Shown here: one piece after another, positions 3,827 to 30,969 of the stretch
Layout: every line of letters begins with the position of its first letter
Position numbering within the stretch: position 1 is the stretch's first letter
From: a virus
Length of the DNA: 64,000 bases
Strand: one strand, 5' to 3'
Virus record (IMG/VR): IMGVR_UViG_3300020202_000074
Coordinates: 1,023-65,022 of that record
Program-made: the position numbers and the translations under genes
The notes under the pieces: model-generated
Databases searched by the model: none
What the model was told of the DNA's origin: nothing
Seen by the model: only the letters and a program-made list of their open reading frames with translations

Positions 3827-4375
3827 ATGCGACGCGTCTACCTCGACATCTCTCAACCCTGCCCCGGCACTCTGTGCAACGTCGGCCACCCCAAGGTGAT
3901 CGGCTGCGCCATGGGTGAAGTCCTCTTCCAGGCCGGCATCCCCCTCGACCTCCTTCGTCGATACGGCACCACTCGCGAGTTGTTTCAAGTGCATCGCGAG
4001 CGACGCAAGCAGCTGCTCCAGTGGCTCGGCATCCAACACTATGTGCCCATGGAATCGTATTCTCACGTGGAGTCCGCGTACGACAGCTTCGTCAAGCTCC
4101 GCGCGATGGACCGCCAAGAGCGACTAATCCACTTGGCGGCGAGACGTGAGTCAGCCCCCACAACGCCGGACTCATGGATCGATCCCGAGCACCATCGCGC
4201 GGAGCTGATCGAGAACGGCCGAAGGATCAATGTGGAGTTCGTCATCGGCATGGGTCCGGACCCCCTAGTTACAGAAGGAGCGCTGTCGTCATGTTCACCA
4301 ACGATGGTCGAATCAATCCTGAGTACCAAGCCCGCCGCAACCAGCCAACCGAGCCCAGTGTTGGCGACTGGGTGA
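3827..4375 (+). CDS. hypothetical protein
   Basis: SD TAAGGA, ATG 3827. Confidence 0.6.
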   Translation: MRRVYLDISQPCPGTLCNVGHPKVIGCAMGEVLFQAGIPLDLLRRYGTTRELFQVHRERRKQLLQWLGIQHYVPMESYSHVESAYDSFVKLRAMDRQERLIHLAARRESAPTTPDSWIDPEHHRAELIENGRRINVEFVIGMGPDPLVTEGALSSCSPTMVESILSTKPAATSQPSPVLATG

Positions 4376-4620
4376 TCAGCCGCATAAACCCCGAGGAGCT
4401 GGTCAAGTACGACGAAGACCCCAACAAGTTCTGGCGCGTCGCACAGGTCCAATCGTCTCGGCAGATGTACTACATCTACTTCAAATCCTCGGTGTCTTGG
4501 TTCGACAACGCCGTGGACGCCCTTGCGCACGCTGTAGGCCGAGCGTCGCTCGTCGACAACATCTACATCCGGGCGGACCTCGCTAAGATGACCATCCCTC
4601 CATTCGGACACCACACATGA
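4291..4620 (+). CDS. hypothetical protein
   Basis: SD AAGGAG, ATG 4291; overlaps previous gene by 85 nt. Confidence 0.6.
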   Translation: MFTNDGRINPEYQARRNQPTEPSVGDWVISRINPEELVKYDEDPNKFWRVAQVQSSRQMYYIYFKSSVSWFDNAVDALAHAVGRASLVDNIYIRADLAKMTIPPFGHHT

Positions 4621-6083: not shown

Positions 6084-6788
6084 ATGTTCGCGTACGAAAC
6101 AGGGGAAACCCCCCAGCTTGGCGACTTCGTCGAGTTCTGGGACGGCCCAAAGAGGTACGTGGGTAAACGGGGTACCGTTACTCGTGTTGACACCGACAAC
6201 GCCACAATAAGGTGGACTGAGGGCGCCGCTGGATGGATGCCCAGTCGGTTCCGTCTCATCGGCCGCAAGGAGTCTGCTGTGCCCAACGAATACACATACG
6301 CATCGGGTGAAGCGCCCATCATGCGGGACGTCGTCGAGTACATCGGCGACGCAGACACCTGGAAGGGAAAGCGAGGCACCGTCATCGGGATAGGCATAGG
6401 CAGCTCCCTAACGAGGATTCGCTGGTCAGAGGGCGGGGGTTTGTGGAATGCCTCCTGGTTCAAGCTCGTCGAGCGTGGGGGCCAACCCTTGAAAGTCGAC
6501 CCCTATCTCAACACCCAAGTCATTCCTTACCCAACGCTGGAGAACACCACCATGAACGTCATGCCATTCCACGTCCGGATCTGGTCCGTGAATCGCGATC
6601 CCCAAACCCTCGCAGTCACCGACGCCACGATGCAGTTCGACGGCATCGTCATCGCCAAGACGCCCAAGGAGGCCGCCAACCTGAAGGCCACCGAGATCAT
6701 CCGCAACAACCAGGATCTCACCCTCGACGACCTCCGCAGCCACATCACTTCGCTCGGCAATGACGGGCACCTCAACGGCGGCCACTAA
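6084..6788 (+). CDS. protein with two tandem SH3/KOW-like repeats
   Basis: internal repeat Y..GE.P...D.VE..GKRGTV..IRW.EG. Confidence 0.65.
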   Translation: MFAYETGETPQLGDFVEFWDGPKRYVGKRGTVTRVDTDNATIRWTEGAAGWMPSRFRLIGRKESAVPNEYTYASGEAPIMRDVVEYIGDADTWKGKRGTVIGIGIGSSLTRIRWSEGGGLWNASWFKLVERGGQPLKVDPYLNTQVIPYPTLENTTMNVMPFHVRIWSVNRDPQTLAVTDATMQFDGIVIAKTPKEAANLKATEIIRNNQDLTLDDLRSHITSLGNDGHLNGGH

Positions 6789-6791
6789 GCA

Positions 6792-6895
6792 AGTCTCCAC
6801 TCTGCGCGAGCCCTCTTGGCCGAAAGGCCCTGGGGGTTTATTGATCGGTTAGCTGCACTTCCACACTTCCAAGCCAGGCACAGAGTAAGGAGACT
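6792..6895 (+). promoter_or_regulatory. candidate cis-regulatory RNA sequestering the SD of the gene at 6900
   Basis: AGTCTCC-ACTCTG (6792-6804) pairs with CAGAGT-aa-GGAGACT (6881-6895); internal GGCC-GAAA-GGCC hairpin. Confidence 0.5.
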
Positions 6896-6899
6896 CGTG

Positions 6900-7544
6900 A
6901 TGTCGATCATTCGACAGCACCGCACGGTTGGCACGTCGCTGTTTTACAGCGACGAGGCGTATTACGACAACAACGGGTTCAGTACTCAAGAGGCCTATTA
7001 CAGCGGAGTGGAGGACGACTACGACTTCTACACCCACCAGCTCGAAGGTGAGCTCTCGTACGAATCCATCGAAGTGGATCCCTCTCCAGTGGGGAATAAC
7101 TACGAGTTGAAGGCCTCCTTCGAGTACCGCGAGCCCCAACGCCTGCATGCGTTCCGTGGACACGTGGCGGACCGCATCGACAAGGACGGCCACTTCTGCG
7201 GCGAGATATGGGGTCCTATCCCCACCACCATTGATGTGCTGAGGAGGCACCGTCGCCAGCGACCCCGCATGGATTACGAGGCGTATCTGACGGCCCGCGC
7301 CGACGCCCTGTTGATCGAAGCGAAGGCCCCTCTCTTCATCACGACGCCCGACAGTCCGCCGAACATTTACGCGACGGAGGCCAAGCCCTCCACCTACCAT
7401 CCGGAACCTTGGCGAGCCTTGAAGGAGCAGATCCGCCTTCGCCTGGGCATGATCGACGCAACCAAACGACCATCGCCCATCCCCGAAGAGGACCTCACCT
7501 TCCAGGCCGCCCAGGCCCTCCGACACTCCCCAAGGAGCCGCTAA
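6900..7544 (+). CDS. hypothetical protein
   Basis: SD AAGGAG, ATG 6900. Confidence 0.65.
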   Translation: MSIIRQHRTVGTSLFYSDEAYYDNNGFSTQEAYYSGVEDDYDFYTHQLEGELSYESIEVDPSPVGNNYELKASFEYREPQRLHAFRGHVADRIDKDGHFCGEIWGPIPTTIDVLRRHRRQRPRMDYEAYLTARADALLIEAKAPLFITTPDSPPNIYATEAKPSTYHPEPWRALKEQIRLRLGMIDATKRPSPIPEEDLTFQAAQALRHSPRSR

Positions 7545-7900
7545 TGGCCAAGAAGACAGGCAAGAAGACCCGCAAGAAGTCACCCCCCAAGAAGGCCGTG
7601 TTCGTCGTCCCCTCCAGCAAACAGGGCAAGTACCCTCAGCTCGAACTGGAGTTCGATGCGAAAAATGAGAAGGGGAAAGATGGTAGTTCGGTCTACCTCT
7701 ATGGAGACGAGATCAGATCTCGGCAGAGTGACAGTAGTGATACCGCTTGGCCCATCAAGGGCCTCTCAACCGAGCAGGGCTACCTCGTGGGCTTCGCCTC
7801 CTGCGGCACCGGTGCCATCGTGGCCACCAACGTCGCACAGGTGAACCAGCTCATCGACTGGCTCAAGCTCTGCATCTCTGAGGGCGCCATTCGCCCCTAA
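7544..7900 (+). CDS. hypothetical protein with basic N-terminus
   Basis: TAATG coupling, SD AAGGAG. Confidence 0.65.
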   Translation: MAKKTGKKTRKKSPPKKAVFVVPSSKQGKYPQLELEFDAKNEKGKDGSSVYLYGDEIRSRQSDSSDTAWPIKGLSTEQGYLVGFASCGTGAIVATNVAQVNQLIDWLKLCISEGAIRP

Positions 7901-7915
7901 CCCCACGCCTATTCG

Positions 7916-7933
7916 GTAACTCGCGCGAGTTAC
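7916..7933. promoter_or_regulatory. perfect 18-bp palindrome upstream of Ubl operon
   Basis: GTAACTCGCGCGAGTTAC equals its reverse complement. Confidence 0.55.
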
Positions 7934-7984
7934 TCTTCCCTATGGCACGCACTGATGCGTGCAGCTCTTTGAAAGGAGCACTTC

Positions 7985-8245
7985 ATGAAGGTTACGTTCA
8001 TCAGCAACAGTGGCGACGGTACCCCCCAGACCATCGAGGTTCCGGACGACACCACCCTCGACATCGTTCTTCGTCAGAAGGGCGTCAACGAGGGCCAGGT
8101 CGTCATCTCCCACAACCGCCAGCGCGTCCCCGCCGGCAGCGCCGCCCAGACCCGCCTCCAGGACGGTGACCGCGTCGCGGTGACCCCGACGAACATGAAG
8201 GGAGCCATTGGCTCCGAGGGCGCTGAGATCCGTCTCGCCGCCTAA
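7985..8245 (+). CDS. ubiquitin-like (ThiS/MoaD beta-grasp) protein with C-terminal extension
   Basis: MKVTFI..IEVPDDTTL..RLQDGDRVAVTPTNMKG; SD AAAGGAG; neighbours E2/JAB/E1. Confidence 0.85.
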   Translation: MKVTFISNSGDGTPQTIEVPDDTTLDIVLRQKGVNEGQVVISHNRQRVPAGSAAQTRLQDGDRVAVTPTNMKGAIGSEGAEIRLAA

Positions 8246-8262
8246 TAGTCTGCGGTTAGGCA

Positions 8263-8374
8263 GCCAACGTAGCTCAAGAAGGTAGTACCTGGCCCGGTCG
8301 CTCCGGTCAGCGAATCCCCTGGAAGAGCGTCGGACAATAATCCGGTGATGGAGGTTCGAGTCCTCCCGTTGGCT
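8263..8374 (+). ncRNA. tRNA-like element: 49-nt D loop, 6-nt anticodon loop
   Basis: GCCAACG/CGTTGGC acceptor, GCTC/GAGC D stem, GGAGG-TTCGAGT-CCTCC T arm, loop CAATAA. Confidence 0.8.
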
Positions 8375-8424
8375 TTGTACGTTACGTTCCTACTTCCACC
8401 CCCTCGCTCTAGAAGGAGCACCAT

Positions 8425-9732
8425 ATGGAGTACCCTGACAGCCTAAAGCTGGAGGTCCTGACTCCGGAGAAAGCCCTGGCCCTCGCGGGCCGCCTCGTCG
8501 CCAAGATCCTCCCCAAACCAGCCCCCAACACCCCAGACACCCCTCAGGGTCTCCCTCGCGTCGTGGAGCACAAGACCACCGCGAAGATGAAGCGGAACAT
8601 CAAGGCGATCGAGACCGCCCTCGCCAAGGGCGACCTCCAGAAGTTCAACGCGATGGTGATGGAGTTGCGGGCCCAGATGAACACCGTAGAGTGGGCGAAG
8701 CTCGTCACCAACTGGACGGCCAAGAAGACCATCGGGACCTCCCCAGTGCGGGATGTGGCCGCCAGCCTCGTCGCCGTCGCCCGCGCGTATCCGACGCACA
8801 TCCTCAGCGGCCCCATCTACTGGCGCAAGGACCGCAAACCCGACTCGGTCAACGGTCGAGGCGCCATCGCATTCCAGATGTGGAGCCTCCTGGTCGACAC
8901 CCCTCACATCTTCCTCTACGACATGGACGACCAGGAGTTCGATCTCGGCCCGATGCGCCTCCATTACAACCTGAAGTACCTGCTCGCCCATTTCCCACAC
9001 TGGGATCCAGGTTACGCTATCAACACGGTGCGGGTGGAGCCCCTGGATCCCTACTGGCCGACTCACAAAGCAGACGTCAACCTCGCCGTTGGCGAAATCA
9101 CCACCGACCAACCCAGCCACCTCGCCCGGACCCACCCCTTCGCCGCCACTCACAACCTGGAGTGCCACCCGCACATCCGGGGCGGTCGACCCTGCTTAGG
9201 GACTGCGCTGCCCGCTCTGGCCAGGGAGCTCCACAGCTTGATGTTCTGGGAAGCCACCGACATCCTCATCGGCTACCTTCAGTCCTACAACCCCGCCGAC
9301 GTCTTCCGCTCCCTTGAGATGTGGAACGTCCCCGCCTGCGCCAACTGCGGCTACCTCGGCAAGAAGCCCGACGACCGCACCAAGTGCGACATCAGCGGCG
9401 GCGAGACGTGCGCCAACTGCCGTTACCGCGAGAACTACGTCGACCTCGACGGAAAGGCCCACGTCGTGACGGTGAACGGCACCCGGTACGGCCAACACTC
9501 CCTCCGCGAATGGGCCGCGAAGACGTACGACGAGCCCATCAAAGCACGCAGGGCCGCAGAGGCCGCTGCGATGTCGGTCGGCCTCTCCCCCAACTCCCTT
9601 CCCACTGCGTCCCCCGTAACGGAGCCCTCCGATGGCCCGAAGAAGAAAACGCGGAAAAAAGCCCGCACCCCTACCCCGTCCGATTACGCCCCCTTCGAGT
9701 ACGTCGAACCGTCCAGGGACGAGCCGTTCTAA
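8425..9732 (+). CDS. prokaryotic E2-like protein with C-terminal Cys cluster
   Basis: HPHIRGGRPCLG (Cys257) then L.SYNP.D; CANC..C..CANC; operon context. Confidence 0.7.
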   Translation: MEYPDSLKLEVLTPEKALALAGRLVAKILPKPAPNTPDTPQGLPRVVEHKTTAKMKRNIKAIETALAKGDLQKFNAMVMELRAQMNTVEWAKLVTNWTAKKTIGTSPVRDVAASLVAVARAYPTHILSGPIYWRKDRKPDSVNGRGAIAFQMWSLLVDTPHIFLYDMDDQEFDLGPMRLHYNLKYLLAHFPHWDPGYAINTVRVEPLDPYWPTHKADVNLAVGEITTDQPSHLARTHPFAATHNLECHPHIRGGRPCLGTALPALARELHSLMFWEATDILIGYLQSYNPADVFRSLEMWNVPACANCGYLGKKPDDRTKCDISGGETCANCRYRENYVDLDGKAHVVTVNGTRYGQHSLREWAAKTYDEPIKARRAAEAAAMSVGLSPNSLPTASPVTEPSDGPKKKTRKKARTPTPSDYAPFEYVEPSRDEPF

Positions 9733-9763
9733 GGGATACTCCGCTAAAGGTAAAGGCAACAAG

Positions 9764-10789
9764 ATGACACACGGATACAGCTACAACAGCCATGGCAGCT
9801 CCGGCTACCAGGTCAAGTCCTTCAGTCCCCCACCCCCTCCACAGCTGAGTTTCTCCGTCTACGCGTGGATGAAACTCCAGTGGTTCTGCCACGCGGCCGA
9901 CACCGAGGTCGGAGCGTTCGGCATCACCGACCCGGAGAATCCCCTCCACGTCGTGGACATGATTTTCCCACCGCAGAAGTGCACCACGGTGTCGGTCGAT
10001 TACGACGACCAGGGACTCATCGACTTCGCCATGGACTGCGCGGAAGCCAACATCGCCCCCGCCAACAGCATGCGGGTATGGATCCACACCCACCCCGGCA
10101 ACAGCCCCACGCCCTCCTCCACCGATGAGGAGACGCTCGCCACTGTGTACAAGGACTCGTCCTGGGCGGTGATGTTCATCCTCGCACGTGGCGGCGCCAC
10201 CTACTGCCGCCTGCGGGCGAACCCCGCCGACAAGGTGTCCCTCTCGTCGGAGATCAAGGTCGTCCTGCCCACCATCTTCGACTACATGAAGTACACCGAG
10301 GTCCCTCTCTCTCACGTCGCCACCTGGGAGAAGGAGCTCAAGGACAACGTCTCCAAACCCGCCGCCCGCGTCTATTCATACACCAGCAGCACTCCTTCCA
10401 ACTACACGCCTGTCGGCATTGCGGGTCACCGAGTCTTGAAGAAGGGCTACGACGACCTGCCCGCGTACAAGGCATGGATGGCGGATCGAGACTTCACGGA
10501 TCCCTTCCCCAAGTATCTGTACATGCACTACCCCGAGCTTTATTGGGTGTACTTCGAGCCTCCCGACTGGTGCAAGAACGATTACACCACTGGCCGACCG
10601 GAGCCCGCCACCTCAGGCATCATCGTCGCGTCTGAGGGTCCCGCCGAGCGGGTCAAGGCCCGCAAGCTGCTGTCCGCCGCCGAGAAGGCCCAAGACCTCC
10701 TCGATGACGACACCCAAGACACCCTCTACGGAAGCTCCGCCGCTGCTGACGACAACGAAATGGCCCGCTTCATGGAGGGCCGCCTCTAG
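9764..10789 (+). CDS. JAB/MPN+ (JAMM) metallopeptidase
   Basis: TEVG..WIHTHPGNSPTPSSTD = E..HxH..S..D motif; ATG 9764 after AAAGG. Confidence 0.85.
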   Translation: MTHGYSYNSHGSSGYQVKSFSPPPPPQLSFSVYAWMKLQWFCHAADTEVGAFGITDPENPLHVVDMIFPPQKCTTVSVDYDDQGLIDFAMDCAEANIAPANSMRVWIHTHPGNSPTPSSTDEETLATVYKDSSWAVMFILARGGATYCRLRANPADKVSLSSEIKVVLPTIFDYMKYTEVPLSHVATWEKELKDNVSKPAARVYSYTSSTPSNYTPVGIAGHRVLKKGYDDLPAYKAWMADRDFTDPFPKYLYMHYPELYWVYFEPPDWCKNDYTTGRPEPATSGIIVASEGPAERVKARKLLSAAEKAQDLLDDDTQDTLYGSSAAADDNEMARFMEGRL

Positions 10790-10820
10790 CCACGACGGGC
10801 GTACGCTGTGGAAGGACACA

Positions 10821-10964
10821 GGGCGGAAAAGCTATCCGCAAGCGGGCAGATGCAAGAGGCTGTAAGAGCACCGGCTCTTGGTGCCGGAGCGCTCTGAGCT
10901 GTACGTAGCTGGCCGGAAGGCCCCGATCAGAAGTCCCGAGCCGGAATCAAGCCCGGCCCGCCCA
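10821..10964 (+). ncRNA. possible structured RNA with acceptor/T-arm-like closure
   Basis: GGGCGG/CCGCCC-A plus GCCGG/CCGGC stem; internal hairpins incl. GGCC-GGAA-GGCC. Confidence 0.3.
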
Positions 10965-11047
10965 CCCGCACACCCCCCGCCAACCTGCGGCCAATACTTG
11001 CTGCTCCCCTCCACGGAGGGGTGTGGCCAATGCGAGGCGGGGGATTC

Positions 11048-11151
11048 GCCGGAGTAGCTCAGTGAAGGAGCAACGATTGATCCCCGTTGTGCCTTCCGGT
11101 AGAGCGTCGGAAGAACTCCGAAGGTCGCAGGTTCGAGTCCTGCCTCCGGCA
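11048..11151 (+). ncRNA. tRNA-like element: 34-nt hairpin in D loop, 5-nt anticodon loop
   Basis: GCCGGAG/CTCCGGC-A, GCTC/GAGC, TCGGA-AGAAC-TCCGA, GCAGG-TTCGAGT-CCTGC. Confidence 0.85.
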
Positions 11152-11193
11152 TTCAGTACCAGACCCCCTATCTAAATCTAAAGGAACCCGATC

Positions 11194-12006
11194 ATGCCCC
11201 GACAGACTGAAGAAGAAACGAACCTCCGCCAGAAGCGATTCCGTGACCTCGGCGAGAAGATGAGTCAGGCCTCCTGCGTCGTCATTGGCTGCGGCGCCAT
11301 CGGCCGCCAGGTGGCCATGCAGCTCGCCGTCATGGGCGTCGCCACCCTCGACCTCTACGACCCTGGCGACATCGAGGAAGTGAACCTCGGCACCCAGGGT
11401 TGGAGCCCCCTCGACGAGGGCAAGCCCAAGGCCCAAGTCCTCGCGGAAGAGATCGAGGATGTGAACCCCGACGTCATCGTCGGCACCGTCATTGGCACCT
11501 TCAAGGTGAGCCCCACCGCGCAGAACGTAGCGGATACGTACGTATTCATGTGCGTGGACTCGATGGAAGCTCGCACCGAAATCTTCCAGGCCATCAAGAA
11601 GGTGGCGGTGGAGGGAGCACCAGCCCACCTTTTCATCGACGCGCGGATGACGATGGAAGCCGCTCGGATTTTGGTGGTGGACAACCTCGCGGCCGACGAG
11701 TATTATCAATCCACCCTATTTGCCGACCGCGACGCGCTGGCTGACGGATGCACGACGAAATCGACCTTCTACTGCGCCAGCCTCGCGGCGTCGCTGATGG
11801 TGACGCAGTTCGCCAAGCACCTTCGGGGGATCGAGACCGACCGCGACATGACCATCGACCTTCGATCTATGGAACTGTTCCCCACCACCATCGACACGGC
11901 GCCCACAGCGGTGTCGCACACGTGCTCGGACAGCAGCCCGCCGGCGCTGGAGACCGCTGCGGTCGATGCCGTCCTGCGTAGCGTGACCGTCTGCCCGATG
12001 CCCTAG
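11194..12006 (+). CDS. ThiF/E1-like activating enzyme
   Basis: VIGCGAIGRQVA..DPGDIEEVNLGTQ..CVDSMEAR..IDARM..GCTTKST. Confidence 0.9.
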   Translation: MPRQTEEETNLRQKRFRDLGEKMSQASCVVIGCGAIGRQVAMQLAVMGVATLDLYDPGDIEEVNLGTQGWSPLDEGKPKAQVLAEEIEDVNPDVIVGTVIGTFKVSPTAQNVADTYVFMCVDSMEARTEIFQAIKKVAVEGAPAHLFIDARMTMEAARILVVDNLAADEYYQSTLFADRDALADGCTTKSTFYCASLAASLMVTQFAKHLRGIETDRDMTIDLRSMELFPTTIDTAPTAVSHTCSDSSPPALETAAVDAVLRSVTVCPMP

Positions 12007-15688: not shown

Positions 15689-15755
15689 GCCGACCACCGG
15701 AAGTCATGCAGGGGCCCATAACCCCAGCGGCGTCGTTCGATTCGACGGGTCGGCA
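15689..15755 (+). ncRNA. tRNA-Met(CAT)-like element lacking a proper D arm, C at position 33
   Basis: GCCGACC/GGTCGGC-A, GGGG-CCCATAA-CCCC, CGTCG-TTCGATT-CGACG; 67 nt. Confidence 0.75.
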
Positions 15756-30758: not shown

Positions 30759-30834
30759 GGTGGTTATGGCACAATGGCGAGTGCGCCGGAGAGATAGAGA
30801 TCCGGAGGTCCGGGTTCGAGTCCCGGTAGCCACC
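30759..30834 (+). ncRNA. tRNA-His-like body with a 10-nt purine anticodon loop
   Basis: G-1:C73, GTGGTTA/TAGCCAC, GCAC/GTGC, CCGGA-GAGATAGAGA-TCCGG, CCGGG-TTCGAGT-CCCGG. Confidence 0.85.
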
Positions 30835-30844
30835 CCGCCCACCT

Positions 30845-30969
30845 GGGTGAGGACTATGGATAATCAGACGACGGTTGGCAAGGGGCCTAGGCTACCCAAA
30901 CCGTAAAAGTTCCCATAGTCACCTGTAAGGATCCGTCTCCGACCTGCGGTTAGAATCCCGGCTCGCCCA
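30845..30969 (+). ncRNA. tRNA-Tyr-like element with greatly extended D arm and unpaired anticodon stem
   Basis: GGGTGAG/CTCGCCC-A, GACTATGG/CCATAGTC helix, CT-GTA-A, variable arm GTC-TCC-GAC, TTAGAAT loop. Confidence 0.65.

Follow-up and report, generated by a model that had tools for sequence, protein, structure and literature searches.

Non-decoding tRNA-like elements between the genes of a phage ubiquitin-like operon: fold, relatives and predicted transcript punctuation

Punctuation of transcripts by tRNAs is known from mitochondria. The t-elements of plant mitochondria (PMC1920247) and the MALAT1 mascRNA module are tRNA-like structures carried in longer transcripts, from which RNase P and RNase Z cut them. 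Here we describe two tRNA-like elements in a phage operon, found in a 64,000-nt stretch (positions 1,023 to 65,022) of the IMG/VR virus record IMGVR_UViG_3300020202_000074, referred to below as the window. The operon encodes a ubiquitin-like protein (Ubl), an E2-like protein, a JAB-domain peptidase and an E1-like adenylating enzyme, in this order; element 1 separates the Ubl gene from the E2-like gene, and element 2 separates the JAB gene from the E1 gene. Like the t-elements and the MALAT1 mascRNA, they have a non-decoding tRNA fold in what would be a longer transcript, retain the acceptor/T-arm half and, if cut, would set the ends of the neighbouring RNAs. Those systems are eukaryotic or organellar, whereas here the setting is a phage operon, the D loop carries an extra arm and cleavage is only predicted.

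Among prokaryotic systems, the phage and bacterial Y RNA YrlA is a non-decoding tRNA mimic recognized by RNase P and by tRNA-modifying enzymes (PMC4201824). YrlA has a permuted tRNA-like topology and an adjacent Ro60/Rsr (TROVE) gene, whereas elements 1 and 2 have the normal 5'/3' acceptor topology, and no tRNA-related or TROVE protein was found among the 55 ORFs of the phage that were scanned. Compared with the canonical tRNA of Rfam (RF00005, Asn/Phe-type body), the elements share the acceptor stem, D stem, anticodon stem, T arm and tertiary nucleotides; they differ in a hairpin of 33–42 nt in the D loop, in anticodon loops of 5 and 6 nt lacking U33 and in the absence of an encoded CCA. The gene content of the operon (Ubl, E2-like, JAB and ThiF-type E1) resembles that of Bil/Bub-type and CBASS Cap2/Cap3 operons, with the differences that this cassette is phage-borne and that its E2-like protein matches no known E2 family. 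Titles and abstracts in the literature revealed no published Ubl operon with RNA genes between its cistrons, and no description was found of a tRNA design with a D-loop arm and a short anticodon loop. To the known idea of tRNA mimicry, the two elements add a new structural variant.

We put at roughly one in two the probability that the elements are paralogous, non-decoding tRNA mimics which are not parts of the Ubl pathway and which are excised by host enzymes, splitting the operon mRNA. If host tRNA enzymes do excise them, the phage uses tRNA punctuation to divide an operon transcript, and this punctuation would replace the hairpin or terminator by which related operons probably make more Ubl than enzymes.

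Fold and decoding ability of the two elements

The elements and their diagnostic parts, all on the + strand, are as follows.

8263..8374, +, tRNA-like element 1: acceptor stem 8263-8269/8367-8373, discriminator U at 8374, no encoded CCA
8279..8320, +, D-loop hairpin insert of element 1: 42 nt, immediately before G18G19 (from the sequence and the minimum-energy fold)
8330..8345, +, anticodon arm of element 1: 5-bp stem TCGGA/TCCGG, 6-nt loop CAATAA, no U33
11048..11151, +, tRNA-like element 2: acceptor stem 11048-11054/11144-11150, discriminator A at 11151, no encoded CCA
11065..11097, +, D-loop hairpin insert of element 2: 33 nt, a 12-bp stem with one mismatch and a 9-nt loop
11107..11121, +, anticodon arm of element 2: 5-bp stem TCGGA/TCCGA, 5-nt loop AGAAC

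The original prediction, made from the sequence without database searches, had placed tRNA-like elements at these two sites, and both are real. The unconstrained minimum-energy fold is a cloverleaf in each case (z = -2.05 for element 1 and -3.86 for element 2), and none of 200 shuffles of element 2 folded equally well. Both consist of a 7-bp acceptor stem, a GCTC/GAGC D stem enclosing the hairpin, a 5-bp anticodon stem and a 5-bp T stem, and both keep the T loop TTCGAGT. The nucleotides that hold the tertiary structure together (U8, A14, R15:Y48, G18G19, G26, T54-T55-C56 and A58) are all present in the two elements. The common design that had been proposed was thus borne out in its D stem, its TCGGA anticodon stem and its hairpin insert, which lies before G18G19, and it extends to G26. 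The inserts enlarge the D loops to 49 nt in element 1 and 40 nt in element 2, compared with about 7–11 nt in canonical tRNAs.

The gathering score of the Rfam tRNA model is 29 bits. Element 2 exceeds it at 51 bits, in an alignment with a 37-nt insertion in the D loop and an anticodon loop of 5 nt; element 1 stays below it at 22.3 bits, with its register shifted. Neither matched any other Rfam family, YrlA included. ARAGORN missed both elements in the native sequence and accepted both cores once the inserts at 8279-8320 and 11065-11097 had been removed, while allowing introns in the anticodon loop yielded spurious models only. The two cores agree at 52 of 71 positions. Between them, four base pairs have changed in a compensatory way, of which three belong to the acceptor stem and the fourth to the T stem, a pattern that fits paralogues whose shape selection maintains.

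The anticodon loops CAATAA and AGAAC have neither U33 nor the canonical 7 nt, and for this reason elements 1 and 2 should not be able to decode. ARAGORN labels element 2 as 'Phe GAA' only if the Watson-Crick pair A31-U39 is opened, giving a 7-nt loop with A33 and C37, where a decoding tRNA has U33 and a purine. As a control, metagenomes were searched with a pattern built from the stem sequences common to both elements, with loops of 4–8 nt allowed. All 119 matches in this sample had 7-nt loops and none was shortened; 111 of them had a normal D arm, and no acceptor start was found for the other 8. An Asn anticodon loop was present in 47 of the 119, and these stem sequences are common in ordinary tRNA genes.

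The insert of element 2 opens with a perfect Shine-Dalgarno-like AAGGAG, followed 6 nt on by an in-frame TTG that opens an ORF of 32 codons spanning what is left of the element (window positions 11065-11175). Since element 1 has no counterpart, we take this ORF to be probably a coincidence.

A recurrent class in viral contigs

The same combination of features occurs elsewhere in IMG/VR. Searching with a pattern of fixed D-arm words (TAGCTCA, 25-55 nt, GGTAGAGC, 20-30 nt, GGTTCGA) returned 113 stretches, in 39 of which the acceptor stem pairs for the distant TAGCTCA. In six of these 39, a duplicated 5' fragment stands ahead of a normal tRNA; the other 33 have a true D-loop insert and comprise 28 distinct elements, with inserts of 25–54 nt. 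The anticodon loop has 7 nt in only 1 of the 33 viral elements (duplicate copies included) and mostly 3–6 nt in the others, as in GGCA and CGAAA. In the alignment of the 28 distinct elements with elements 1 and 2 (A4), 96% of the cells are paired. The anticodon stem lies outside the selection pattern, yet 88% of its cells pair and each of its five pairs shows double changes; pairing falls to 38–47% when the partner columns are slid. A covariance model built from the class (R1) gives elements 1 and 2 scores of 85 and 63 bits, which follow by construction, both being in its seed.

With the same pattern, a search of one genome per prokaryotic species gave at least 31 true matches; among the matches listed, 25 are of the duplication type and 6 contain real inserts, of which 4 have canonical anticodon loops and only two the non-canonical design. 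D-loop-insert tRNAs with normal anticodon loops are thus also found in cellular genomes, and in the matches sampled it is mostly in viral contigs that a D-loop insert on this D-arm sequence is combined with a non-canonical anticodon loop. Roughly half of the viral members sit in tRNA arrays. Genes for Ubl, JAB or E1 are absent from the neighbourhoods of all class members; when 112 flanking ORFs were scanned with Pfam, no protein family proved common to them, and no defence or counter-defence gene is consistently adjacent. On this comparison, elements 1 and 2 belong to an apparently undescribed, recurrent phage class of non-decoding tRNA mimics, and the presence of the design in many uncultured phages points to a class of phage non-coding RNA that standard tRNA finders miss.

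Several further arrangements were seen among the matches. In the duplicated-5'-end type, a normal tRNA gene follows a copy of its own acceptor and D stem, and this copy forms a hairpin with the spacer; this type occurs at six viral loci (L034, L050, L072, L082, L135 and L138) and 25 cellular ones, and dominates the cellular matches listed. A tRNA-shaped gene at L112 (4157-4269, - strand) has a normal D arm and about 50 nt in the anticodon loop, and adjoins a D-loop-insert element at 4368-4473. In a subgroup of A4 (L036, L039, L051, L073, L074, L102 and L106), a small hairpin, YCGGCAGR or CCCGGTAGGG, is repeated, its sites being the end of the D-loop insert and the 'anticodon' arm.

Processing of the operon transcript and competing readings

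The genes between which the elements lie are listed here together with the spacer that precedes element 2.

7985..8245, +, Ubl gene: 86 aa, ThiS-like beta-grasp (Pfam ThiS, E = 3.5e-6)
8425..9732, +, E2-like protein: 435 aa, Cys-rich C-terminal half, label unconfirmed (motif and gene order)
9764..10789, +, JAB-domain peptidase: 341 aa (Pfam Prok-JAB, PADLOC JAB models)
10790..11047, +, spacer of 258 nt between the JAB gene and element 2, present in no homologous operon
11194..12006, +, E1-like adenylating enzyme: ThiF family, 270 aa (Pfam ThiF, E = 1.9e-23; PADLOC E1-E2 models)

Both elements are co-oriented with the flanking genes; element 1 begins 17 nt past the Ubl stop codon, and 42–50 nt separate the elements from the next start codons. 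Since they lie on the coding strand between co-oriented genes, transcription within the operon RNA is expected. Scanning the operon for sigma-70 and terminator consensus sequences gave results no better than shuffles, with no promoter-like site near the elements, and the single weak terminator match in their vicinity is the T arm of element 1 itself.

The requirements of bacterial RNase P are an acceptor stem stacked coaxially on the T stem and the elbow. Precursors without CCA, those of phage T4 among them, are matured by RNase Z (RNase BN). Elements 1 and 2 each offer a 12-bp acceptor/T helix, the elbow nucleotides G18G19 and a 3' end without encoded CCA, which covers all that the two enzymes are known to require; cleavage by host RNase P and RNase Z is predicted from these features. 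The predicted RNase P sites are 8262/8263 and 11047/11048, and those of RNase Z lie immediately after 8374 and 11151. Together these cuts would release two stable RNAs of about 105–112 nt and split the message into three: Ubl; E2-like and JAB; and E1 with the genes after it. We regard such punctuation of the operon, which the original prediction had proposed, as mechanistically reasonable and plausible.

What these cuts might achieve is suggested by related operons. JAB homologues numbered 1812 at E <= 1e-3; 32 loci were fetched, in 31 of which the order Ubl, E2-like, JAB, E1 could be traced at least partly. In at least 12 loci Ubl homologues head the same operon, and in 10 of 12 homologous operons the 90 nt past the Ubl stop codon rank within the most stable 10% of windows at their locus (and within the top 2.5% in 7 of 12). 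These structures are GC-rich hairpins of about 11–17 bp, several of them followed by T runs as in intrinsic terminators; examples are L001 4745-4840, L019 2947-3005, L032 2955-3010 and L018 3310-3360, among others. A strong RNA structure following the Ubl gene is thus conserved, and it probably makes Ubl more abundant than the enzymes, in the manner of an attenuator. Element 1 occupies this same slot, which lends indirect support to punctuation of the transcript; because it stands where relatives carry the hairpin or terminator, it would probably do the same job and uncouple Ubl output from enzyme output.

The interleaving of RNAs and genes was not conserved. No tRNA-like element was found between operon genes at any of the 31 loci by ARAGORN, by an acceptor/T-arm scanner or by the class covariance model; R1, searched in 29 of these loci, gave no match inside an operon. 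The distance between JAB and E1 is an overlap or at most 55 nt in all 31, compared with 404 nt in this phage. Part of the excess is the spacer, for which about 250 nt of hairpin-rich non-coding sequence had been proposed: the spacer is there and contains no convincing ORF (its only one, 10878-11057, is proline-rich and of low complexity), and its hairpins do not exceed chance, the fold being no better than shuffles (z = -0.85 and -0.46). It matched no Rfam family above noise and is not repeated elsewhere in the genome.

Several observations weigh against excision of the elements as the point of the arrangement. The runs that hold the sequence are of DNA only, so that co-transcription and cleavage are deduced from established enzyme rules, and the rules of the host RNase P and RNase Z are themselves assumed. 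JAB and E1 are translationally coupled in every relative; therefore, their separation by element 2 meets no conserved need. About half of the class members in other phages sit in tRNA arrays, where punctuation is needless; this suggests that selection acts on the released RNA itself. Finally, two of the five tRNA-like elements of the phage lie in one 4-kb operon, for which we estimate a chance of about 2–4% under random placement among the intergenic gaps; local duplication of a paralogue would explain the pair, and some local link is possible.

Release of the RNAs may instead be the point, with their place in the operon incidental. The RNAs would then be stable L-shaped mimics that act as decoys for host factors binding the tRNA body, or compete as ligands for them; such factors might be tRNA-directed defence nucleases or enzymes modifying the acceptor end. 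With the short anticodon loop, the mimics would escape cleavage and stay outside translation. A role of this kind is suggested by conservation of the whole L-shape, including an anticodon stem that covaries, beyond what RNase P and RNase Z need, and by the class members within tRNA arrays of other phages. In the near-identical pair L044/L116, moreover, a truncated hairpin is kept through a compensatory change, and the few cellular inserts go mostly with canonical loops. Phage tRNAs have also been described as counteracting tRNA-targeting defences (10.1101/2023.03.15.532788). On the other side, no defence gene accompanies the class consistently, a decoy aimed at an anticodon nuclease ought to retain the anticodon loop, and the exact placing of element 1 in the post-Ubl hairpin slot is left unexplained. 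We consider this account possible, though improbable. A combined view, to which we give slightly more room while still doubting it, is that five-armed non-decoding mimics of a phage-wide class, matured by host tRNA enzymes, would serve phages as stable decoys for tRNA-binding host factors and, where they sit within operons, as mRNA punctuation that sets product ratios.

It is unlikely that the elements are functionless, either as decaying tRNA genes that the phage once acquired and that indels have since disabled or as selfish tRNA-derived insertions. This reading draws on three further tRNA-like elements outside the operon.

15689..15755, +, tRNA-like element with acceptor stem and T arm, no D arm
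30760..30834, +, tRNA-like element with a 10-nt anticodon loop (Rfam tRNA 52.7 bits; ARAGORN tRNA-???)
about 30845-30965, co-oriented, weaker tRNA-like element

Each of the three is disabled differently, so that among the five the damage comprises D-loop inserts, a missing D arm and a 10-nt loop; the element at 30760 also has a weak, sub-threshold match to the Rfam mascRNA model. ARAGORN found no canonical tRNA in the whole phage genome, its single call being the 'tRNA-???' at 30760, and homologous operons manage without the elements. Decay is difficult to reconcile, however, with intact stems and tertiary nucleotides, with compensatory differences between elements 1 and 2, with a two-part design that recurs in unrelated phages with strong covariation, and with the sample of 119 ordinary tRNA genes that share these stems, where no loop is shortened. 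Dense phage genomes also seldom retain some 580 nt of dead DNA in an operon.

The original prediction had further proposed that the RNAs are partners of the Ubl machinery, linked to tRNA thiolation. They would be bound or modified (for example, thiolated), or would act as cofactors or regulators for E1, E2 or JAB. In other systems ThiS/ThiF-type pairs (TtuB/TtuC, Urm1/Uba4) do act in tRNA thiolation, and the presence of two of the five elements within the operon would fit. So would the tRNA-like genes that lie 90–200 nt downstream of E1 at two loci with homologous operons, a cluster in L023 and a single element in L027; the only other matches near such operons are single elements in L021 and L017. 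The tRNA mimic mascRNA has been reported to bind the SUMO E1 (10.64898/2026.01.19.700226). We nevertheless consider this reading very unlikely. No RNA separates the genes in the 31 homologous operons, most of the fetched flanks have no tRNA-like element, three elements lie elsewhere in the phage, and at least 28 class members have no ThiS/Ubl, JAB or ThiF/E1 gene nearby. JAB and the Cys-rich E2-like protein point to protein conjugation and not to a sulfur relay, and no rhodanese or tRNA-thiolase gene was found among the phage proteins. The narrower suggestion, by analogy with mascRNA, that the elements bind or regulate the phage E1 is equally improbable. A tempting connection between these RNAs and ubiquitin-like chemistry is thereby removed as unsupported.

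Least credible of all is that the elements are genuine decoding tRNAs whose hairpin would be an intron, spliced out before they function: archaeal tRNAs with introns in the D loop are known, and removal of the insert gives element 2 a canonical D loop (AGTGGTA), which ARAGORN then calls tRNA-Phe(GAA), but the anticodon loops remain at 5 and 6 nt without it (the 7-nt loop requiring the opened pair described above), the inserts are continuous hairpins without the two 3-nt bulges of a bulge-helix-bulge, and no splicing endonuclease or RNA ligase family was found among the phage proteins.

The L023 cluster (6538-8321) contains two canonical tRNAs (Asn, Met) and several non-canonical members, including a 107-nt D-loop-insert element with the loop CACATTA, one element without an anticodon arm and one with a 14-nt loop.

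The phage and its operon genes

The genome is 65,474 bp long; the window spans 64 kb of it, and the G+C content is 62%. The window encodes a terminase, a DNA polymerase, a primase and long tail proteins, and the genome is therefore that of a phage. Four soil metagenome runs, all of DNA, hold the region with zero differences among them, so that population variation provides no covariation signal. No close relatives were found in INPHARED by blastn and tblastn, and scans of IMG/VR with E2 and E1 peptides, of JGI metagenomes with E2 and a word-based protein search recovered only the phage itself.

The gene labels that had been assigned to the operon hold for Ubl (ThiS), JAB and E1 (ThiF), which Pfam and PADLOC models recognize; the E1 gene has a Shine-Dalgarno sequence of its own. 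The 'E2' label rests on a motif and gene order. The protein contains a T-H-P-H...C-x-G motif followed by many CxxC pairs or repeats, conserved in 12 homologues, and the motif resembles the HPN...Cys motif of E2 enzymes. It matched no Pfam family, a profile search of the PDB returned zinc-finger modules only, and a Foldseek search of the PDB with its AlphaFold2 model (mean pLDDT 61) gave nothing at E <= 0.001; for these reasons we treat the label as plausible and unconfirmed.

In the alignment of this family (A3), which is an orphan family, the H-P...C-x-G core is invariant and the N-terminal part is long and helical, while the C-terminal half is filled with CxxC and has weak matches to B-box, RING and FYVE modules. 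The protein may be an E2 fused to zinc-binding modules, a question that the structure model is too weak to settle. The cassette of Ubl, E2-like, JAB and E1 genes is widespread in uncultured phages, with 26 loci in IMG/VR (L007-L032) besides L001-L006, and translational coupling of its JAB and E1 genes is nearly always seen.

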